Assembly (NCBI GenBank): GCA_038867695.1
Contig: JAWBXT010000001.1
Span: 169 to 64,168, forward strand
Direction: 5' to 3'
Length of the DNA stretch: 64,000 nucleotides
Source: Thermoproteota archaeon
GTDB taxonomy: Archaea; Thermoproteota; EX4484-205; JAAOZP01
Shown: piece after piece, positions 2,004 to 22,782 of the stretch
Numbering within the stretch: the first letter of the stretch is position 1
Layout of the letters: each line of letters starts with the position of its first letter
Notes under the pieces: model-generated
Database searches by the model: none
What the model was told of the DNA's origin: nothing
The model's input: the letters and a program-made list of their open reading frames with translations, nothing else
Position numbers and translations under genes: made by a program

Positions 2004-2086
2004 TGGGGTGAGTGATTTTCTAAGCCCCCTCAAGGGGCTACTGTCGAATTGCCCTGTGGTTGATAATCCGATAAGAATTTTAACTA

Positions 2087-2180
2087 AGCCCCAGGCGAGA
2101 TTTGAACTCGCGGCCTCCTCCTATCTGGTTTTTCCCACATATTACCAAGGAGGCGCTCTGACCAGCTGAGCTACTGGGGC
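2087..2180 (-). tRNA. tRNA-Thr (anticodon GGT) with an intron of about 20 nt after position 37
   Basis: Reverse complement: acceptor GCCCCAG/CTGGGGC, D-arm GCTC-AGCTGGTCA-GAGC, anticodon stem CCTCC/GGAGG, loop TTGGTA. A 20-nt insert (ATATGTGGGAAAAACCAGAT) follows. T-arm GCGAG-TTCAAAT-CTCGC. Confidence 0.8.
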
Positions 2181-2410
2181 TATGTGATTCCGTGTTTTTG
2201 CTGATTTTAAAGTTTTCCAATAGGCTCAAGCCGAACTTTATTCAGAAGGTAATTTGGTAATGTTTTTTCTTCTCCGTATGATTTATTTGATACTAATAAA
2301 AATACGTTTATTCTCCACGACCAAGATATAATGTTTTTGAACAAATTAGTAAAGAAGACTGTATTGAAACCCATATAAAAAGCTATATAAGTTAGCTGAT
2401 GCAATGAAGG

Positions 2411-12844: not shown

Positions 12845-13153
12845 GTGGAGGCTCAAATGAGCGGGAAAATAACCATATCTAGAGAAGAAATGCTACATTA
12901 CGCTAGGCTTTGCAGAATCTCATTAAGCGAGCAGGAAATAGACAGGCTTTTGAAGGATGTTAACGAGATACTCGGGTATTTTGAAACCATAAGAAGCCTT
13001 CAGCTGGATGCTGAACCCATGACTTATGTAACTGGCGTAAACGAGTCTCTTAGAGAAGATGAGCCTGCCGAAACTCTTAGTGAAGAAGAAGTCTTCAAAA
13101 ACGCTGGGGAGAAAGAGGATAAATGGTTCGTATCTGGTCAACTATGGGGTTAA
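12845..13153 (+). CDS. gatC: Asp/Glu-tRNA amidotransferase subunit C
   Basis: 102-aa acidic helical protein directly upstream of, and overlapping, gatA. Confidence 0.65.
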   Translation: MEAQMSGKITISREEMLHYARLCRISLSEQEIDRLLKDVNEILGYFETIRSLQLDAEPMTYVTGVNESLREDEPAETLSEEEVFKNAGEKEDKWFVSGQLWG

Positions 13154-14574
13154 ACAGCTTTTCAGAGCAGGTTATAGAGGTTCAGGAGGGGTCTATAGAC
13201 CCTGTGGAGAGGGTACATCAAGCTCTCGAAAAGATCGAGGCAAATAGGAAATTGAACGCATTCATAACGGTAGATGCAGAGGGAGCATTGAAGAAGGCTG
13301 AGGAGATTAAGAGGAAAAAAGCTAAAGGCGAGAAATTAGGCGTATTGGCAGGAATCATAGTAGCCGTTAAAGACAATATTTCCACAAAAGGCTTAAGGAC
13401 TACATGTTCTTCCAAAATGCTTGAAAACTATGTTCCCGTTTATGATGCCACTGTTATAGAGAGGATAAAGGTTGAGGATGCAATTATAATAGGAAAAACT
13501 AACATGGATGAGTTTGCAATGGGATCTAGTACTGAAACATCATTCTTCGGACCCACGAGAAACTTTTTTGACCACTCTAGAGTAGCAGGGGGAAGCAGCG
13601 GTGGAAGTGCCGTCGCAGTCGCATGCGAGGCCGTAGACGTTGCGCTAGGAAGCGATACTGGTGGTTCAATAAGGAACCCTGCTGCATTCAACTCCATAAT
13701 TGGTTTGAAGCCGACATACGGTAGAGTTTCACGCTACGGCTTAATAGCGTATGCAAGTAGCCTAGACCAGATAGGACCTATGGCCAAAGACACTTTACTA
13801 ACATCACTTCTTCTCCAAGTAATAGCTGGAAGAGACTTAAGGGATTCAACCACTCTTAACAAGCCTGTTCCAAATTATGTTGAAGAAGCTCTGAAGAAAA
13901 CAAAAGGGGTTAAGATAGGTGTGATAAAGGAGGGTTTCGATAATGTAGATGAAAGGGTTTCTAGAAAGGTCTATGATGCATTAAAAGCTCTTGAGGAAGC
14001 CGGGTGCCTTATCGAAGAAGTTTCTATGCCCTTTATAAAATATGCTCTTCCTGCATATTACATAATAGCCACTGCGGAGTGTTCGAGCAACCTGGCCAGG
14101 TTCGACGGAATCCGTTACGGAGGAAAACCCGTAAGGGGAAAATGGGAAGAACAGCTTGTTAAGATCAGGACAGAATGCTTCGGAGAAGAAGTTAAGAGGA
14201 GGATATTCTTAGGCACTTTTGTACTCTCCGCAGGCTATAAGGAGGATTTCTACATAAAAGCCTGTAGAGTTAGGAGGAGGATATACGACGAGTTTAAGCT
14301 TTTACTCAAGAATTATAGTGCTCTGGCAACACCTACAATGCCAGTCCTACCCTGGAAGATAGGGGAATTCCTCTCCCCATTAGAAGTTTATATGATGGAT
14401 ATTGAAACCGTTGCAGTTAACCTAGCGGGATTGCCTGCGATAAGTATTCCGGCAGGATTTGTGGACTCCCTACCTGTGGGACTTCAACTAATAGGAGGCC
14501 ATTTTGATGAGGCAACGTTGTTAAGGATATCATATGTCTACGAGAATGAAATAGGTTTTACTAGATGGTTTTAG
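13123..14574 (+). CDS. gatA: Asp/Glu-tRNA amidotransferase subunit A (amidase signature enzyme)
   Basis: Amidase signature GGSSGGSA and Ser-cisSer-Lys context. The true start is probably an internal Met near 13144. Confidence 0.85.
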   Translation: MVRIWSTMGLNSFSEQVIEVQEGSIDPVERVHQALEKIEANRKLNAFITVDAEGALKKAEEIKRKKAKGEKLGVLAGIIVAVKDNISTKGLRTTCSSKMLENYVPVYDATVIERIKVEDAIIIGKTNMDEFAMGSSTETSFFGPTRNFFDHSRVAGGSSGGSAVAVACEAVDVALGSDTGGSIRNPAAFNSIIGLKPTYGRVSRYGLIAYASSLDQIGPMAKDTLLTSLLLQVIAGRDLRDSTTLNKPVPNYVEEALKKTKGVKIGVIKEGFDNVDERVSRKVYDALKALEEAGCLIEEVSMPFIKYALPAYYIIATAECSSNLARFDGIRYGGKPVRGKWEEQLVKIRTECFGEEVKRRIFLGTFVLSAGYKEDFYIKACRVRRRIYDEFKLLLKNYSALATPTMPVLPWKIGEFLSPLEVYMMDIETVAVNLAGLPAISIPAGFVDSLPVGLQLIGGHFDEATLLRISYVYENEIGFTRWF

Positions 14575-14630
14575 ATCCTCAAGGGAGGCGCAGAAAGGTT
14601 ATAAACCAGTTTTAAATTCCTCCTCGAGGG

Positions 14631-15725
14631 ATGCTTCAGAAGGCTCCTATGCTGCTCATACCTGGTCCGATAACGCTTCCCGAGAGAGTTTTGAAAGCTA
14701 TGGCTAAGCCAATAATAAATCACAGAGGGGAAGAATTTCACAGGCTTTACGAAGAGATAGAGGAGGGATTAAAATACGCCTTCCAGACTGAAAACGACGT
14801 TTACATAATAAGCGGCTCTGGCACTGCTGGGATAGACATGGTTTTCCAGAACTTCGTTTATGAAGGGGAGAGGGTTCTGATACCCGACTTCGGAGATTTT
14901 ACGGAAAGAGCTGTGGAGAACGCTTTAAAAGTGGGTGCTAAACCAGTTACTGTTAAGGCGGAGTGGGGTAAGCTTCCGAGCCTAAGGGAGATAATCAGCA
15001 TAATCGAGAAGGGGGATGTGGAAAGCATTTTCATAGTGCATAACGAGACCTCTACCGGTGTAACGTTCAGAATGATGGAGGAAATACGTAACGTCATTGG
15101 AGATAGGGATATACTTGTTTTCGCAGATACTGTTTCAGACCTTGGTGTAGAGCCTTTTTACACCGATAAGTGGCGTATCGATGTCTGCGTAACAGCCAGC
15201 CAGAAAGGCCTTGGAGGACCTCCTGGATTATCCTTTGCATCAGTAAGCAAGAGGGCTCTAGAAAAGGGGTTAGGCAACCCTAGAAGGAGAAGTTTTTATC
15301 TCGATATCGAGAAGTTACATAAGTTTCATTTGAGGAAAGAGACGCCATTTACTCCCGCCATCACGTTGTTATACGGTATGGCTGAGGCCCTCAATATACT
15401 TAGAGAAGAAGGCTATGAGGGGAGGATAAGAAGACACAGGGAGAATGCTGAGATGATATACGAATTCTTAGAATCAGAGGGGTTTGAAGTTTTTCCGCAA
15501 GAGGAGAAGTACCGATCAATATCCATAATAGTTTTCAAAAACAAAAATTTTGATGCATCCAAAACGATTAAAAAACTATATGAAGAATATGGAATACTTA
15601 TTGCGAGGGGGATGGGTAAGCTGAGAGATGAAACCACCAGGATAGGAAACGTTGGATACGAGGGAAAGGAAGAGATAGAGTATTTCCTCAGATCATTCAA
15701 AACCATATTGAATACTATGCGGTAG
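14631..15725 (+). CDS. class V aminotransferase (serine-pyruvate / alanine-glyoxylate family)
   Basis: SQKGLGGPPGLSF PLP-lysine region in an AGXT-like fold. Confidence 0.8.
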   Translation: MLQKAPMLLIPGPITLPERVLKAMAKPIINHRGEEFHRLYEEIEEGLKYAFQTENDVYIISGSGTAGIDMVFQNFVYEGERVLIPDFGDFTERAVENALKVGAKPVTVKAEWGKLPSLREIISIIEKGDVESIFIVHNETSTGVTFRMMEEIRNVIGDRDILVFADTVSDLGVEPFYTDKWRIDVCVTASQKGLGGPPGLSFASVSKRALEKGLGNPRRRSFYLDIEKLHKFHLRKETPFTPAITLLYGMAEALNILREEGYEGRIRRHRENAEMIYEFLESEGFEVFPQEEKYRSISIIVFKNKNFDASKTIKKLYEEYGILIARGMGKLRDETTRIGNVGYEGKEEIEYFLRSFKTILNTMR

Positions 15726-15844
15726 ATATTATGATAGTTTATACTGCTGGTTTTTAACAAACGACTCTTTTTGAAGCAGAAGCTTAACACAATATTAATT
15801 GGGCTTTAAAGGATCGTATGAAAAAAGATTATTATAAAATAAAT

Positions 15845-16579
15845 CTACTCTACTTCTTTTACAGCTACTTCAGCCCTGGTCTCTATCCTTTCGATCTTAC
15901 CGTCACGTATCCAGAATATCCTATCACTGACGTCGATCATTTTCAAGTCATGCGTTGCGTTTATTATGGTAACTTTCTTTTCAGTATTTAGTGTCTTCAA
16001 GAGGTTGATTATCTCCAATCCAGTGTGAAGATCAAGGTTTCCAGTCGGCTCATCTGCAAGGACTATAACCGGATCATTTACTAGTGCCCTAGCTATTGCA
16101 ACCCTCTGTTGCTGTCCGCCTGAAAGTTCACCAGGCTTATGGTCCAACCTGTCTCCTAAGCCTACCCTAGTTAGCATTTCTCTAGCTCTCCTCACTCTTT
16201 CATCTCTCTCAACTCCAGTGAAAATCATCGGCATCATGACATTCTCCATCGCTGTTAACACAGGTATAAGATTAAATGTTTGGAAGACATAACCTATCTT
16301 CTTGGCCCTTAGCCATGCTAGCTCGTAGGCATCGAGGCTTGCTATATCCACTTCGTCAATGAACACTTTCCCCCTCGTAGGTCGATCTAAGCCTCCAACC
16401 ATGTTGAAGAAAGTGGTCTTGCCGCTTCCCGACGGGCCCATTAGTGAAAGATATTCTGACCTTTTGATTCTCACACTCACTCCGTCTAGGGCTTTTACCG
16501 TTACTGGACCCATTATATAGTATTTCGCCAGATCCTCCGTCTCAACAGCATACTCATATCTTAGGGACATTTCCCGCAC
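15845..16579 (-). CDS. ABC transporter ATP-binding protein (MacB/LolD-like)
   Basis: Walker A GPSGSGKTT, LSGGQQQR signature, Walker B ILLADEPT. Confidence 0.85.
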   Translation of the reverse strand: MREMSLRYEYAVETEDLAKYYIMGPVTVKALDGVSVRIKRSEYLSLMGPSGSGKTTFFNMVGGLDRPTRGKVFIDEVDIASLDAYELAWLRAKKIGYVFQTFNLIPVLTAMENVMMPMIFTGVERDERVRRAREMLTRVGLGDRLDHKPGELSGGQQQRVAIARALVNDPVIVLADEPTGNLDLHTGLEIINLLKTLNTEKKVTIINATHDLKMIDVSDRIFWIRDGKIERIETRAEVAVKEVE

Positions 16580-16582
16580 CTC

Positions 16583-17236
16583 CTAAGCTTCATACCTTAA
16601 TGCCTCCGTGGGACTCAGCCTAGAAGCAATGTAAGCAGGCACCAGAGAAGATATTGTTGCTATGAGTACACCTAAGAGTATGTCTATCAGCGGGTTTGCT
16701 AAAAGTACCAAAATATCGTTGAAGCTACGGGGCATGAAGAAATTAGTCCATAGTCTAACTGCACTGACGAATATTTCGGGATTAGCTCTAGAGAAATACT
16801 GCCATAATGTTGCTACACCCCATCCGGCGATGGCACCTATGCTACCACCTATTAGACCTATTAGAAAAGCCTCTATCAGAAATATCTCTATCACGTGCGA
16901 ATTCATTGCACCTAGGCATTTCATGGTCCCTATCTCCTTGTATCTCTCAGTAACGCTCATAAGCATACTGTTTACGATTCCTACCGAACATATTAGTATA
17001 GCGATAATCGCCATCCAGATCTGATATGTCTGTACAAGTACTCCAGATCCCTCCTGGTATAGTAATGAAACTATTCTTCCGGTCGTTAGGAGGAAGGAGA
17101 GGAAAGAAATTCCTAGTATTATTGAAGTCATTGTTATAAGCGCTCTGCTGAACCTGAATCTGATGCTTTCTAGGCTAAGGAAGAACGCTTCCGAAAGGGG
17201 GAATTTCACTCCCTTATTCTCGCTCAACCGTCCCAC
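16583..17236 (-). CDS. ABC transporter permease, short FtsX-like 4-TM domain
   Basis: Four hydrophobic helices directly upstream of the ATPase (3-nt gap). Confidence 0.55.
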   Translation of the reverse strand: MGRLSENKGVKFPLSEAFFLSLESIRFRFSRALITMTSIILGISFLSFLLTTGRIVSLLYQEGSGVLVQTYQIWMAIIAILICSVGIVNSMLMSVTERYKEIGTMKCLGAMNSHVIEIFLIEAFLIGLIGGSIGAIAGWGVATLWQYFSRANPEIFVSAVRLWTNFFMPRSFNDILVLLANPLIDILLGVLIATISSLVPAYIASRLSPTEALRYEA

Positions 17237-17458
17237 CCATTGTGGATTTCCAGCATATTTAAAGCTTATTAATCTTTATGTGTAGCACTCTGTACATGAA
17301 CATAAGCGATTTCATAGGGAATTTAGAGAGGATAACGCTAGTTTTAGCAGTAGGTATCTTAGTGATAATCATATACTTTATCGTCAGAAAAACTATTAAG
17401 CGTTGAACAATGATTGTACGTAAATATCCCAGGCAACATATTAAACAATGGTTTATAA

Positions 17459-18976
17459 TTGGAGAGAATGCAGATGTCTAGAGAGGAGCTTATCCAGAGG
17501 TATATTGAGGCTATTCTTGAAAAGAGGAGGGAGATATCAAGAGAGGAGCTTATCCAGAAAATAGAGGAGAGGAAGAAGCATGCCCGCGTTAGCGAAGCAT
17601 ATAGAGAGGTCTGGGCTGTTTTCAGCATAGCGAATGAATTGGGTGTAAGGTTGGAGGATATTTCACTAGAAAAGGAGATTAAGATTGGCAGCATTGTTTC
17701 TGGACTTACCAATATTTCGACGCGGGGGAGAATTATTGCCGTTCTTGAGCCGAAGGAAGTCGAATCCGGCAATGGGAAAATCATGATAACAAGGGTTATA
17801 ATAGGGGATTCCTCCGGCTGGTGTTACTTATACTTGTGGAGAGAGAAAGCAAACTTGCTCCAGGAGCTCGGTATTGACGTCGGAGATGTTATCAAAGTAG
17901 CTAGAGCATACAGTAAGGAAGGAAGACTTGGGACCGTGGAGATACATCTAGGTAATACAGGAAGCATATCAAAGATTGGAGAAAGCCCCGACATACCTCC
18001 CAGAGAAACTTTCTTTAAAAAACTCAGAGAACTAAACTATAATGACAATGTCGTTAACATTAAGGCTATGGTAATAGGGGTTTCTGAGTTAAAGAAGTTT
18101 TCAGATCCAGTGAGGGGCGAGGGGGCTGTTAGGAGGATTATCCTGGCGGATGGAGATTTTAGAATGCCGTTAACCCTCTGGCATGAACATTCTACAAGAA
18201 TAGCCGAAAAAGATGTTTTCAGTATGGTTCTAGTAGCCGGAGCTAGGCTTAGGAAGGGCTTAAGCGGAAACCTAGAATTAGAACTCAATTCAATGGGGTA
18301 TTTAGAAATACTCAATAAGACAGGAGAGGCGAAGTATAGTGTTCTTTCTAAGGTAGATCGGGGTAAACTCGTCAACCTAAAGCTTCAGGTACTCAAAATG
18401 TTTAAGGATAATACTATCTCCTTAGGAGGAAGGGTTCGAAGGGTTATGGATACCATTGTCTCAGACGGTGAATCCTACGCCGTATTAACTTGCTGGGGCA
18501 ACATTATAGATAAGCTTAGACAGATAGATGCTGAAGGTAAGAGAGTATCATTTCTAAACGTTATCGTTAGAAACTGTGAGAGACAAATATTGCTAAGCAC
18601 GACCTCGTCTACAACTATAATTGGTGTTGAAGAGGGTCTTCCGAACCTGAAGATTCCTGAAAGAGCATATAGGATTAGTGAGCTTGAACCAGGTATGAGA
18701 AAGATTCATGTTGAGGGTGTTGTTTCCACAAACCCAGAAGAGCAGGATGTCGTTTTAGCCACCGGAGAAAGGATAAGAGTATGCCGTCTAAACCTGATGG
18801 ATGATACGGGGTTGGTGGAAGTAATAGCATGGCGCGAGAATACCAGCAAAATACTAGAATTAAGGGCGGGAGAGGGGATAAGAATTAAATGGTGCAACGT
18901 TAGGGAGAGGGGAATAGGAAGATTATGCATTGAGGTTACTGACGATAGTGAGATAGAGGTGGTGAATTTTGGGTGA
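17459..18976 (+). CDS. RPA-like protein with four predicted OB-folds and an N-terminal repeated helix (putative ssDNA-binding protein)
   Basis: Four blocks of about 100 aa each with an OB-fold-like beta pattern. SREELIQ is repeated at the N-terminus. No zinc-finger motif is present. Confidence 0.5.
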   Translation: MERMQMSREELIQRYIEAILEKRREISREELIQKIEERKKHARVSEAYREVWAVFSIANELGVRLEDISLEKEIKIGSIVSGLTNISTRGRIIAVLEPKEVESGNGKIMITRVIIGDSSGWCYLYLWREKANLLQELGIDVGDVIKVARAYSKEGRLGTVEIHLGNTGSISKIGESPDIPPRETFFKKLRELNYNDNVVNIKAMVIGVSELKKFSDPVRGEGAVRRIILADGDFRMPLTLWHEHSTRIAEKDVFSMVLVAGARLRKGLSGNLELELNSMGYLEILNKTGEAKYSVLSKVDRGKLVNLKLQVLKMFKDNTISLGGRVRRVMDTIVSDGESYAVLTCWGNIIDKLRQIDAEGKRVSFLNVIVRNCERQILLSTTSSTTIIGVEEGLPNLKIPERAYRISELEPGMRKIHVEGVVSTNPEEQDVVLATGERIRVCRLNLMDDTGLVEVIAWRENTSKILELRAGEGIRIKWCNVRERGIGRLCIEVTDDSEIEVVNFG

Positions 18977-19250
18977 TGAGGCTGTAGTTATTGTTGGGAG
19001 AAAGAAACCTTGGAGTTACGTTACGGCATGTATTACCGTGTTCAATAGTGGAAGCAAAACACTTACCATAAGGGGTAGAGGTGAGAACATCTCTAGAGCA
19101 GTTGATGTTGCCAACTTATTGCGAAGAAACATAGCAGGCACACAAATAATCGAGGTAAGGATTCTGGAAGAAAGCGGTGGTGGAACTTCGAGAATAACTC
19201 CCGTGATTGAAATAGTTGTGGAAAACCCTCACTTAAAAGAAGCTAAGTAG
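18969..19250 (+). CDS. albA: DNA/RNA-binding protein Alba
   Basis: Alba hallmark VVIVGRKKPWSYVTA...TIRGRGENISRAVDVANLL in a 93-aa protein. A TTG start at 18969 overlaps the upstream TGA (18974-18976). Confidence 0.8.
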   Translation: MGDEAVVIVGRKKPWSYVTACITVFNSGSKTLTIRGRGENISRAVDVANLLRRNIAGTQIIEVRILEESGGGTSRITPVIEIVVENPHLKEAK

Positions 19251-21005
19251 CAATAGGAATGTTAATAGTATTGTGGAAATAATTAAAATATAAATCAATT
19301 TTTCACAGAATTCCACAAAATTCTCAATTATTTTAAAAATCCCTCCCGTAACCTTAACACCATTTACCTTTCCGACCCAAGCTTTTGCCGAGTATGACGA
19401 AAGACTTCCAATTGCATTGTTAATAGATTTTACACAATATTCTAGTAGAATCTCTCTCCTTGTTTTAAAACCAATTGGAAAATACCCTCTCTTAGCTTTT
19501 CTAATTCCCGTTAAAAGATGCGTATCAGTCGTAACGATTTCTAATGTCGATAGATTTAGCAAATTCTTAAGATTCTCGACAAGGTAATTACGTAAGCCAG
19601 CGACCATATTGTTTCCGTCGATTACCACAATAGCATGGTTTTCATCCTCGGCTTTAAAAACTAGGGTTGATATTCCTCCTGGCCCTATTTCTTCCTTTGG
19701 GAGTATGGCGGGACGAATCCTATCAAACCCGATTTTAAAACTTTTTGGAGATGATTTCTGTAAGCATTCTAACGCATTATTTAATAGTCTAGCGAACGTC
19801 TCTTCATCAGGATCCGATACTTTCCAGCTTGAGGGGTCAATCGAGTTATGTGCGTCAATAATTATCAATGGGATAAAACCATAGCGACTCACAACACTTG
19901 AAAATAGTGGAAACCATCTTGGAGGAAGATCTTCCATAGAATGTCCTGGGCAGGATAGTAAAACGATGCAGTAAGAGAATATACGAAGCAAGGTAACGCA
20001 ATATCCCTCAGCCTCCTTTTGAATTACGTTTGCACGATAATCTTCTAAGTACTTTGCAGAATTTAACGCCTCTATCATTTCTTTCTTAATTTTTTCAACT
20101 ACCCTCCAAGAAGAAAGATTAAAACTGTGATCTGATAAATTACGGAGTAAGAGCATTCTAAGACTACTGTCCTCAAGTTCATTAATTAAACGACTTGGTA
20201 ATGAACTGCTTCCGACCGTACCAAATGGCCCGAAATGGGCCGATAAGCCGAATATCGATAAGTTTGTTCCATCTTCAAGAGTAAAGAGAAGTAGCGATAA
20301 TTCTAGATTCTTCTCCTCACATATTTCCTCAAGAACGTTTTCAAATGGTTCAGAATTCTTGTTTAAATAATATTCTAAATAAGCTTGGAATATCTTTAAG
20401 GGACTTATTGGAGCATTTTTCTTCCATTTAATGCTTATAATAAACAGGAAAAGTATGCTAGTAGAGAAAGATATTACGAGTGGCAATATTATGTTGACCC
20501 ATTTTTTCATTGCTATTAAGCTTAATACGAGCCAACGAGAAGATTGTAAGAATAAGTGAAGTAGAGATATTACAAAAACAATATGAATACTTTTTCTTAA
20601 GAAGCCTAACATTACGAGTGTAGTGATGAAAGAGGATAATGCTATACCCAGTGAAGTCAAGAAGAATGCTGTAAAACAAGAGTTCTGATTAAGAGTAAGA
20701 GTAAAAATCCATCCTACGAAAAAAAGTAGTGCAAAAATAAATTCTTGGACGGATTGAAGCGCTAGGAGTCTTCGGAAAGTAAAAATCCTATCTCCTTGGA
20801 AAAAAATCTTGTGAACGAACATTGAGCATAAGAGAGGCGAAAATATCAATATTGATATCTGTGGGGCAGCTCTTAGAATGGGGCAAGAATATAATAGAAA
20901 TATTAAAATTATTGTTTCCAAAAACAGGTTTATAAATATTATTACACGTAGAGACGGAAATGAGAAGAGGAACTTAACATAACGAGATGCATCTCCGGAG
21001 GACAA
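19233..21005 (-). CDS. large polytopic membrane protein (N-terminal multi-TM region plus soluble domain), DUF2070-like
   Basis: About seven hydrophobic helices in the first 230 aa, then a soluble domain. The family assignment is from memory only. Confidence 0.45.
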   Translation of the reverse strand: MSSGDASRYVKFLFSFPSLRVIIFINLFLETIILIFLLYSCPILRAAPQISILIFSPLLCSMFVHKIFFQGDRIFTFRRLLALQSVQEFIFALLFFVGWIFTLTLNQNSCFTAFFLTSLGIALSSFITTLVMLGFLRKSIHIVFVISLLHLFLQSSRWLVLSLIAMKKWVNIILPLVISFSTSILFLFIISIKWKKNAPISPLKIFQAYLEYYLNKNSEPFENVLEEICEEKNLELSLLLFTLEDGTNLSIFGLSAHFGPFGTVGSSSLPSRLINELEDSSLRMLLLRNLSDHSFNLSSWRVVEKIKKEMIEALNSAKYLEDYRANVIQKEAEGYCVTLLRIFSYCIVLLSCPGHSMEDLPPRWFPLFSSVVSRYGFIPLIIIDAHNSIDPSSWKVSDPDEETFARLLNNALECLQKSSPKSFKIGFDRIRPAILPKEEIGPGGISTLVFKAEDENHAIVVIDGNNMVAGLRNYLVENLKNLLNLSTLEIVTTDTHLLTGIRKAKRGYFPIGFKTRREILLEYCVKSINNAIGSLSSYSAKAWVGKVNGVKVTGGIFKIIENFVEFCEKLIYILIISTILLTFLLLLSFF

Positions 21006-21009
21006 TCTT

Positions 21010-21195
21010 CTATATTCCTAAGACTAGCAATAATATGCTAAGTGCTATGAATATTGTTGAGAAAACAACTATAATTATAGGTTTTATCTGGAATCCCCTT
21101 CCTCTTTCTCCAAGAGTACTAAATAATCCTGCAGTTCCTGCGGGAAGGCGCGTAGACCTCCGGTCTCCCTTCTTTTTTGCGCGTTCTTCAGGCAT
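21010..21195 (-). CDS. small membrane protein (possible)
   Basis: 61-aa ORF with a basic N-terminus and one TM helix, ending 4 nt before the large membrane protein gene starts. Confidence 0.25.
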   Translation of the reverse strand: MPEERAKKKGDRRSTRLPAGTAGLFSTLGERGRGFQIKPIIIVVFSTIFIALSILLLVLGI

Positions 21196-21297
21196 TTATA
21201 CCCGTAATTATTTCATTCTTAGGGTAAATAAACCTTTATCTTAATCAGCTCAAGTTAAAAAAGATAAAAACTTACTACTATCTTGAATCCTAGGTAG

Positions 21298-22782
21298 TTG
21301 AGTCAGAACGAGACAATTATAAAGAGAAGGATATTGGCAGAGGCAACGCGCTTAGGGATGCTTCTAAACCCAGAGGCGCTTTCAATACTTGTCGAAAAAT
21401 ATGATGAGAAATCTATTCATACAGTTCTAAACAAACTGGCTGAAGAAGCTAAGAAAGAGGGGAGTACTATTGTTGTCTCAAAAGAAGCTGTAGAAAAAAT
21501 TATTAGCAAAAGTGAAAAAAGCGAGGTATCAATAGGGGTACATCATCATGTTTTAGCTAAGGATATTGAAGAAAGGATTGAGATTTTAAAATCCTATGAT
21601 GCTAAGAATGTCTCAGATGATCTTGAAGCTAGGAGACAATATTTCGTTAATAGGTATTCAAAGATCTCTTCAATACTAAGAAGCAGAGCAGATATGGTTC
21701 CTTATTACTCGTTAAGAAAAGCACGTAGCCTTCCAGACCGCTCAGAGGGGAAGACCATAGTTATGGTATACGAAAAACGTGAGAATTATCTTATAGTTGA
21801 GGATATGGATTTCACTACTAAGGTAATGATTCCTAAGGATTGTGGTAGGGATTTAAGAGATAAGATCGGTAGGCTTTTACCCGATTCAGTGGTTGGAATA
21901 TCCTTCTACGTCTCTAACTCTAGGCTTTTCTGCAAGTCTTTGATTTTTCCAGATGTACCGATAAAGAGGTTTAAGTCCACCGAGGAAGACGTATCAGTCC
22001 TCCTAACCTCAGACATCCATTATGGGAGCCAAAAGTTCTCTGAAAAAGCCTTCATGAGAATGGTCAAATGGCTGAGGGAAGGAGGGCCTACTGAGAGGGA
22101 AAAGGAGCTATCTTCTAAGATCAAGTATGTGATTATAGCAGGAGACCTTGTAGACGGTGTTGGAATTTACCCTCAGCAAGAAAAAGAGTTGAAGGTAAGG
22201 GATGTGGATAAACAGTATACGGGGCTTTCAAGCCTTCTGAGCCAAATACCAGAATACGTCAGAATTATAGTGATACCTGGAAATCATGATGCAGCTCCAC
22301 GGGCTATTCCCCAGCCTCCCATATTCCACGAGTACGCTGAAAGGTTTAAGGATAGTGGAAACATTATCTCGCTTAGCAATCCTTGCGTAGTCTCGTTACA
22401 TGGTGTTAAGTTCCTAGTCTACCACGGCACAAGTATAGAGGATATTGCAACCTTCGCTAAAAATGCTAGTTATGACAGGCCTGAGAACGCTATGGAGATC
22501 ATGCTTCAACTTAGACATTTAGCACCAGTATACGGATCTCGAACCCCTCTATTGGCACATTATCAAGACGAACTTGTCATAGATGAGGTCCCCGATGTAT
22601 TACACACTGGCCACGTACACGTTTTCAGGAATGGGATTTATAGGGAGATCAGGCTTGTTAATAGTGGAACATGGCAAGAAAGAACAAAGTATCAGGAACA
22701 GCTTGGAATATTGCCCACTCCGAATATTGCTGCAGTACTCATGCTTAAGAACGGCTCTGTTTCTCCGATAAAATTTGCTTAA
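21298..22782 (+). CDS. DNA polymerase D small subunit DP1 (calcineurin-like phosphoesterase)
   Basis: PDE motifs DIHYGS, IIAGDLVDGVGIYP, IPGNHDAAPRAIPQP, RHLAP and HTGHVHV match archaeal DP1, with an N-terminal OB region. Confidence 0.8.
   Translation: MSQNETIIKRRILAEATRLGMLLNPEALSILVEKYDEKSIHTVLNKLAEEAKKEGSTIVVSKEAVEKIISKSEKSEVSIGVHHHVLAKDIEERIEILKSYDAKNVSDDLEARRQYFVNRYSKISSILRSRADMVPYYSLRKARSLPDRSEGKTIVMVYEKRENYLIVEDMDFTTKVMIPKDCGRDLRDKIGRLLPDSVVGISFYVSNSRLFCKSLIFPDVPIKRFKSTEEDVSVLLTSDIHYGSQKFSEKAFMRMVKWLREGGPTEREKELSSKIKYVIIAGDLVDGVGIYPQQEKELKVRDVDKQYTGLSSLLSQIPEYVRIIVIPGNHDAAPRAIPQPPIFHEYAERFKDSGNIISLSNPCVVSLHGVKFLVYHGTSIEDIATFAKNASYDRPENAMEIMLQLRHLAPVYGSRTPLLAHYQDELVIDEVPDVLHTGHVHVFRNGIYREIRLVNSGTWQERTKYQEQLGILPTPNIAAVLMLKNGSVSPIKFA

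Follow-up and report, generated by a model that had tools for sequence, protein, structure and literature searches.

The rpa-alba locus of a Thermoproteota contig: probably a co-expressed housekeeping gene pair in an old synteny block

What should be made of a gene for a single-stranded DNA-binding protein that runs without a gap into the gene for a chromatin protein? The question is raised by a stretch of 64,000 nucleotides (nt) from a Thermoproteota archaeon (contig JAWBXT010000001.1 of assembly GCA_038867695.1, positions 169 to 64,168), hereafter the window, in which a gene resembling that for replication protein A (RPA) overlaps the start of an alba gene. A first-pass annotation, made from the letters of the window, had taken the overlap to imply equal stoichiometry and, perhaps, a dedicated nucleic-acid-handling complex. 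Family membership, fold, gene geometry and conservation, which could be observed directly, instead favor another reading: the pair is probably a housekeeping rpa-albA locus of Candidatus Brockarchaeota, co-expressed within an old block of conserved gene order and not an obligate complex.

A zinc-free replication factor A homologue

The larger of the two proteins is clearly a homologue of archaeal RPA (replication factor A). Sequence similarity, tandem OB folds and a three-helix AROD domain place it in the family, at a level short of equivalog in any curated model: the NCBIfam replication factor A models match it with E-values of 5e-30 to 1e-20, all below their equivalog cut-offs. Among solved structures, phmmer matches Rpa1 of Pyrococcus abyssi (8AA9/8AAJ, E 2e-9, N-terminal domain and first OB fold), with the AROD-OB1 crystal chain 8AA9 aligning to residues 14-180, and the Sulfolobus solfataricus protein SSB (1O7I, E 6e-6), which binds single-stranded DNA. 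A profile search with an alignment gave no proteins beyond the 29 that the single sequence had matched. With an exhaustive hidden Markov model search, 985 cluster representatives were recovered at E<=1e-10; full-length matches of about 500 amino acids (aa), named replication factor A1 or originating from Bathyarchaeota, are numerous among them. No second copy of either RPA or Alba was found within the 64-kb window.

An AlphaFold2 model of the protein, built on 18 homologues (pLDDT 87.6, pTM 0.76), consists of three N-terminal helices (residues 3-17, 23-34, and 41-55) followed by four beta-barrel units (limits in Table 1), each with the strand-strand-strand-helix-strand-strand order typical of OB folds. 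The units are homologous repeats, since profile-profile comparison with hhalign matches them to each other (OB1-OB4 at 94% probability, E 9e-8; OB1-OB2 79%, OB2-OB3 76%, OB2-OB4 70%). Foldseek comparison of the model with the Protein Data Bank (PDB) yields RPA70 (4GOP, 1JMC), P. abyssi RPA (8AAJ), HIN domains, CST and RADX, all of them tandem-OB proteins. Model, fold search and internal comparison thus agree on the four OB folds that had been read from beta patterns in the first pass, and RPA is the nearest family. Assignment as a Cdc13/Stn1/CST-like or RecJ-associated OB protein was considered and rejected: CST and RADX are generic tandem-OB fold matches, and the sequence-level matches are all to RPA or SSB. 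One tryptophan per OB fold is invariant at an equivalent position in the family alignment (W122, W236, W341, and W453); it appears to correspond to the residue that stacks on bases in other SSB and RPA OB folds, and binding of single-stranded DNA (ssDNA) is predicted on this basis.

The zinc ribbon noted as missing in the first pass is indeed missing. The six cysteines are scattered, the protein has no CxxC motif, no cysteine is invariant across the family alignment, and the window RPA has no match to Pfam Rep_fac-A_C, a domain present in other RPAs of the comparison set (P0026-P0029 and L107/L108). The C4 or C3H site in a C-terminal OB fold that defines zinc-finger RPAs is therefore lacking. 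A C-terminal winged helix, also noted as absent, does not occur in the model; this absence is expected and uninformative, as the winged helix belongs to the RPA2 subunit in other archaea.

Zinc-free RPAs of this kind have precedents. In Methanosarcina acetivorans, MacRPA1 combines four OB folds with the lack of a zinc finger; RpaC of Haloferax volcanii has three OB folds, no zinc finger and a monocistronic gene, and zinc-less RPAs occur in a broad range of archaea (PMC3273820). Compared by description, the window RPA resembles MacRPA1 and RpaC in being a single polypeptide with an N-terminal domain, tandem OB folds and no zinc finger, and differs from the monocistronic RpaC in having alba directly downstream. 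Its closest relatives with a name bear the labels Brockarchaeota or Bathyarchaeota; among methanogen proteins the closest homologue is P0025 (433 aa), with 28% identity across 45% of the window protein. The AROD domain has been described in P. abyssi Rpa1 and is widespread in Archaea (PMC10122647). With P. abyssi Rpa1 the window RPA shares AROD and OB-1 (E 2e-9), an SREE motif at the start of helix 2, and overall fold (Foldseek E 1e-14). The P. abyssi protein, however, has a zinc-finger OB fold and forms a trimer with Rpa2 and Rpa3, encoded in one operon, whereas the four OB folds of the window protein are plain, a zinc site is lacking, and its gene has neither Rpa2 nor Rpa3 as a neighbor. In MjaRPA four OB folds are joined to a zinc-finger DBD-C-like domain (PMC8329085). 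The first 480 of the 651 positions of NF009032, covering the N-terminal domain and four OB folds of the Methanocaldococcus jannaschii-type RPA, align with window residues 17-485, but the zinc finger and C-terminal DBD-C-like OB fold have no counterpart and the score is 104 against an equivalog cut-off of 773 bits. The hint in the first-pass annotation of an unusual RPA architecture is accordingly not borne out, because both the zinc-less four-OB form and AROD were already described.

The first-pass reading frame of 505 aa exists as a mechanical call (17459-18976, plus strand, opening at TTG 17459), but its start needs revision. From comparison with relatives, the start is placed at ATG 17474, giving a product of 500 aa, because close homologues are 500 aa long and begin MSREEL, a stop codon lies immediately 5' of the homologous ATG in relative L002, and the two earlier starts, TTG 17459 and ATG 17468, fall within a conserved Shine-Dalgarno-like GGAGAG; on the same three grounds both earlier codons were discarded as candidates. 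The ribosome-binding region, GGGAGAGG/GGAGAG, is kept 7-10 nt 5' of the ATG in related loci. Farther upstream, GTAAATA(T/C) is likely to be the TATA box of rpa; its distance from the RPA start is the same in the window as in all those Brockarchaeota loci for which the true start was located. A 141-codon ORF (open reading frame) lies antisense to the 5' end of the gene (17359-17784, minus strand) and is presumably a shadow ORF.

A duplicated N-terminal helix had also been claimed, and is seen in both protein and DNA. SREELIQ stands at the start of helix 1 (residues 2-8) and again at that of helix 2 (residues 24-30). In the DNA beneath it lies a direct repeat of 36 nt, 86% identical, with a spacing of 60 nt (17463-17498 and 17523-17558), which reaches back over the start codon into the ribosome-binding region. 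In L001, L003, and L005 the second copy retains an ATG preceded by a GAGGAGG-like run. The repeat suggests a duplication of the 5' end of the gene, or a possible internal start that would give an RPA lacking helix 1.

The alba gene and its junction with rpa

By its sequence the second gene product is securely assigned as a normal, somewhat diverged Alba, though not as an equivalog. Pfam Alba (PF01918) is matched at 49.2 bits against a gathering cut-off of 25 (E 4.6e-13), and the NCBIfam AlbA cut-offs are not reached (scores of 56.1 and 50.1 bits for cut-offs of 90 and 88.25 bits, respectively). Thirteen solved Alba chains match at E<1e-4, the nearest being that of Pyrococcus horikoshii (2Z7C, E 2e-11), and a protein search recovered 27 close orthologues. 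As in the solved Alba proteins of Sulfolobus (Sso10b), P. horikoshii (2Z7C) and Archaeoglobus fulgidus (1NFH), with which it aligns over its full length, the N-terminal basic motif (here GRKKP, of the GKKP type) and the RGR-ISRAVDVA core are kept; it differs from them in falling below the NCBIfam cut-offs and in starting with TTG inside the preceding gene.

This TTG (18969-18971) sits 2 nt 5' of the rpa stop codon (TGA 18974-18976), so that the two frames overlap by 8 nt. The first pass had chosen it as the start, and it is the only usable one: the Alba frame is shut by a TGA at 18963-18965 and open only from 18966, no other ATG, GTG, or TTG occurs before about residue 50, and a later start is implausible because half of the Alba fold would be lost. 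Shine-Dalgarno-like elements are complementary to the 3' end of archaeal 16S rRNA, and GAGGTG- or GGAGG-type purine runs occupy the same site, within the rpa 3' end, in the window and in loci L001-L015, L016, and L018. In 15 of 15 related genomes a TTG in the Alba frame precedes the rpa stop by 5-11 nt, and TTG is present in all 16 loci. The overlapping rpa codons differ between two subclades while the TTG persists, which supports both its use as a genuine start and translational coupling. Same strand, overlap, a Shine-Dalgarno element in the upstream gene, a single start and conservation together give the locus the geometry of a bicistronic operon, and from this geometry the translation of Alba is predicted to be coupled to that of rpa.

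Overlap by itself carries no special signal in this genome, in which it is a routine junction. By simple longest-ORF calls in the window, 13 of the 45 same-strand neighbor pairs overlap and 26 of the 45 lie within 20 nt of each other. Coupling leads to proportional, not necessarily equal, synthesis. Equal stoichiometry, and with it a complex, is thus not implied by the overlap. At its other end alba (plus strand) overlaps the 3' end of the convergent DUF2070 gene (minus strand) by 18 nt (19233-19250), so that any terminator of the one gene would fall inside the other.

Conservation and orientation of the pair in relatives

A protein identical to the window RPA is annotated in a Thermoproteota metagenome-assembled genome (MAG). 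Orthologues of 67-81% identity occur in MAGs whose labels vary between Candidatus Brockarchaeota, Thermoproteota, Nitrososphaerota, Crenarchaeota, and Thaumarchaeota. Alba follows RPA directly in all 15 Brockarchaeota loci (L001-L015), and those with enough flanking sequence have ABC and FtsX genes upstream and genes for DUF2070, Sec61-beta, and the PolD small subunit (DP1) downstream. In the window the pair is likewise flanked by an FtsX/ABC pair upstream and a DUF2070 membrane-protein gene downstream; since both of these neighbors are on the minus strand, rpa and alba would make up a two-gene operon. Same-strand adjacency extends to RPA relatives of 30-37% identity, so that synteny of the pair, which had been posed as a test in the first pass, is found well beyond the closest orthologues. 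Examples include P0023 and P0024 (30-33% identity), with junctions of a 5-nt gap or GTGA overlap (L016) and of TAGTG, a 1-nt overlap (L018), P0058, labelled Bathyarchaeia (12-nt gap), and P0215, from Bathyarchaeota ex4484_205 (43-nt gap), in which gatA, aminotransferase, ABC, and FtsX genes lie upstream as in the window. In P0059 (L023) an opposite-strand gene of the adenosine kinase family stands between RPA and Alba.

The shared block runs gatA, aminotransferase, ABC ATPase (minus), FtsX (minus), RPA, Alba, DUF2070 (minus), Sec61-beta (minus), PolD small subunit. It spans 13123-22782 of the window and 1-9491 of L024 (Bathyarchaeota ex4484_205), two loci whose RPAs are only about 30% identical, and is shared by L001-L015; in L024 DUF2070 is absent and the PolD large subunit comes after the small one. 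A 61-codon ORF between the DUF2070 and PolD small-subunit genes of the window (21010-21195, minus strand), easily missed in annotation, is homologous to genes with Pfam Sec61_beta matches in related loci. No Alba was found near the RPA genes of a methanogen and of a Promethearchaeota (Asgard) MAG, near a 686-aa zinc-type RPA, or near another RPA of 518 aa, and the linkage is therefore not a general property of RPA. On a methanogen-type contig (identified by an MCH gene; L019-L021, 5001-7236) a 433-aa RPA with a weak DUF2240 Pfam match is followed 4 nt on by a RadA/Rad51 gene, a different tight pairing of RPA with a partner.

A different arrangement prevails in the sister group. Metagenome contigs were scanned with a profile of the Bathyarchaeia-type RPA group, made from a narrower alignment, and of the 80 loci found the 38 with at least 2.5 kb of downstream flank were counted. 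Alba lies within 2.5 kb downstream of RPA in 23 of these 38, and in 12 of 14 among RPAs of four-OB size. Its strand is opposite to that of RPA in all 23, the distance to the rpa stop is often a mere 20-200 nt, and an upstream position is never seen. Such tail-to-tail pairs are seen in L027, L035, L043, L045, L046, L048, L064, and others among L027-L106, and Alba is on the opposite strand in L025 and L026 also. Where DUF2070 was detected beside Alba (e.g., L027, L054, L065), it lies upstream on the same strand. Because sister-group Alba is on the strand opposite to RPA and co-oriented with DUF2070, co-translation is not what keeps the two genes together. From these comparisons the RPA-Alba neighborhood is old, confined to this branch of Thermoproteota and able to persist on either strand; its co-directional, tightly joined form is specific to Brockarchaeota and their nearest RPA relatives. 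The difference between lineages seems to reflect an inversion of the alba gene, about 300 bp long, at its original site.

The first-pass remark that an RPA-like/Alba operon is not a textbook arrangement agrees with the literature, in which the linkage is apparently unreported as far as could be checked. In a systematic genomic-context study of archaeal replication genes, the RPA linkages given are limited to the RPA trimer operon of Thermococcales and pairs of RPA41 with COG3390, and Alba is absent from it (PMC2643942). RPA occurs with COG3390 (RPAP) in Halobacteriales and Methanosarcinales, and as RPA41-RPA32-RPA14 in Thermococcales (PMC2643942, PMC3273820). Neither RPA, OB-fold proteins nor gene neighborhoods come up in a survey of the Alba domain from 2024 (PMC11621453), and a literature search turned up nothing relevant. 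Like these known operons, the window locus has a small nucleic-acid-binding partner placed tightly after RPA and conserved within a lineage; unlike them, the partner is Alba in place of an OB-fold subunit, and it is on the opposite strand in sister lineages.

The features of the locus are collected in Table 1. Elsewhere in the window, ARAGORN calls a tRNA of 96 nt (2086-2181, minus strand) to which it assigns no type and an anticodon of four bases, "tggt"; this is probably a misparsed intron-containing archaeal tRNA, and three ordinary tRNAs (Ala, His, Thr) adjoin it at 1458-2004.

Table 1. Features of the rpa-alba locus (positions in the window).
Feature	Position	Strand	Basis
Candidate TATA box of the rpa-alba operon, TAAATA-type	17421..17428	+	About 50 nt 5' of ATG; conserved
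Shine-Dalgarno-like GGAGAG, 7 nt 5' of RPA start	17461..17466	+	Conserved in related loci
rpa (replication factor A) gene, 500 aa	17474..18976	+	NCBIfam E 5e-30, below equivalog cut-offs; P. abyssi Rpa1 match; MSREEL orthologues
N-terminal three-helix domain (AROD-like), residues 1-60, with duplicated SREELIQ	17474..17653	+	Model helices; phmmer to P. abyssi AROD-OB1
OB fold 1, residues ~72-170	17687..17983	+	Model strands 81-168; matches S. solfataricus SSB 1O7I and P. abyssi OB-1; W122 invariant
OB fold 2, residues ~185-283	18026..18322	+	Model strands 193-282; hhalign to OB1 79%, E 1.6e-5; W236 invariant
OB fold 3, residues ~290-388, most diverged unit	18341..18637	+	Model strands 299-387; hhalign to OB2 76%, E 2.2e-5; W341 invariant
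OB fold 4, residues ~398-498	18665..18967	+	Pfam tRNA_anti-codon E 7.6e-7, above gathering score; hhalign to OB1 94%, E 9e-8; W453 and W473 invariant
Shine-Dalgarno-like GAGGTG in RPA 3' end, 7 nt 5' of Alba start	18956..18961	+	Read from sequence
alba gene (93 aa; starts with TTG; 8-nt frame overlap with RPA)	18969..19250	+	Pfam Alba; PDB 2Z7C; single in-frame start
T5 run, possible archaeal oligo-T terminator	19299..19303	+	49 nt 3' of Alba stop, inside convergent DUF2070 3' end; function inferred

Co-expression, complex formation, and what the locus may mean

In the probable account, which extends from the observations to co-transcription, coupling, and a rationale of dosage that we infer, the first gene would supply a single-polypeptide, zinc-free RPA with an acidic-type AROD-like domain and four tandemly duplicated OB folds, expected by homology to coat ssDNA in replication, repair, and recombination, and the second a canonical Alba, a small dimeric binder of double-stranded DNA (dsDNA) and RNA. 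The gene geometry suggests that one promoter 5' of rpa drives both genes, and that ribosomes begin Alba at the TTG behind the GAGGTG in the last rpa codons, with an output proportional to, not equal with, that of rpa. Inversion of alba in place within the older block would have put the gene under control of the rpa promoter in one lineage and, it appears, together with DUF2070 in the other. The likely benefit would be a co-regulated dosage of a duplex-melting ssDNA binder and a duplex-stabilizing chromatin protein in a thermophile. Such a balance is plausible because Alba1 of Sulfolobus protects dsDNA from melting by SSB; it also inhibits MCM, according to the summary given in PMC2817471. Two observations sit uneasily with this account. 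TTG is a weak start, odd for a protein that is very abundant in Sulfolobus, which hints that Alba may be of lower abundance here. Furthermore, adjacency on either strand at about 25-35% RPA identity appears to outlast the usual span of neutral gene order, so that a functional link is possible.

The strongest form of such a link, a dedicated RPA-Alba complex that is perhaps assembled co-translationally and acts, for example, at junctions of single- and double-stranded DNA, forks, or R-loops, would explain the adjacency, which from Brockarchaeota to the Bathyarchaeia-type loci is far above the roughly 0.3% expected at random (the authors' estimate for a gene of one to two copies in a genome of about 2 Mb). 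The junction is tight in every same-strand case, and the four RPA genes of other lineages without Alba nearby indicate that the linkage is not general. A stable partner of RPA is expected, however, to be co-oriented throughout the lineages that keep the pair, whereas outside the Brockarchaeota branch most loci have the two genes convergent, with Alba and DUF2070 in the same orientation, so that conservation extends neither to co-transcription nor to co-translation. An unrelated gene separates the pair in L023, both proteins are standard members of their families with no extra domain or extension able to dock a partner, and overlapping junctions are common in this genome. The complex proposed in the first pass is for these reasons disfavored and must be rated unlikely. 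Less probable again is a pair centered on RNA, in which Alba and a multi-OB protein binding single-stranded RNA would protect or chaperone RNA at high temperature. Some sources annotate the orthologous Alba as RNA-binding, high-affinity RNA binding has been reported for a hyperthermophilic SSB (PMC5346138), and the 2024 survey has the Alba domain evolving from RNA to DNA binding. Against this, the proteins most like the OB protein are genuine replication RPAs, its gene and that of the PolD small subunit are about 2.3 kb apart in the conserved block, and no RNA-specific genes (those for RNase P, the exosome, or the ribosome, for example) are linked to the pair.

The junction itself admits two further explanations. 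Alba might be made from its own promoter or from another start, the overlap being incidental; gene callers do vary (82-98 aa for the Alba orthologues), and in lineages with a separated or inverted alba gene a promoter of its own is evident. Here, however, the stop at 18963-18965 closes the frame, no other start occurs before about residue 50, the TTG is found in 16 of 16 loci, and no A/T-rich TATA-like box is seen in the 60 nt upstream of alba, all of which make this very unlikely. A programmed +1 frameshift at GGG-TGA, yielding an RPA-Alba fusion, was rejected as extremely unlikely. A slip over the T of the stop after GGG (18971-18973) would indeed enter the Alba frame at GAT 18975, and it has a Shine-Dalgarno-like element a short way upstream, as does the frameshift site of bacterial RF2. 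Nevertheless, the codon ahead of the stop varies (GGC-TAG, GAG-TAG, or CAG-TAG in L001-L015) and none of these can re-pair in the +1 frame, whereas the TTG is always there; genes in L016, L022, and L024 lack an overlap of this kind.

RPA and Alba are standard families, and the picture of archaeal replication is unchanged by a co-expressed housekeeping pair of this kind. What is new, judging from the papers searched, is a conserved RPA-Alba neighborhood in two large uncultured archaeal groups. The zinc-less four-OB RPA with AROD, known from methanogens and haloarchaea, is the common form of RPA in Bathyarchaeia and Brockarchaeota, and the locus is a neat example of an apparent in-place inversion that affects just one small gene of a conserved block. 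It also provides a cheap hypothesis, namely that cells co-regulate a duplex-melting ssDNA binder with a duplex-stabilizing chromatin protein, an antagonism so far seen only in vitro with the SSB and Alba1 of Sulfolobus. There is an outside chance, somewhat better than that of a dedicated complex, that in the Brockarchaeota/Bathyarchaeia branch the two genes make up a true functional module, kept together by selection for joint regulation or joint action at forks, single- to double-strand junctions, or R-loops; if so, the Brockarchaeota operon with its coupled TTG would be the tightest form of that module.

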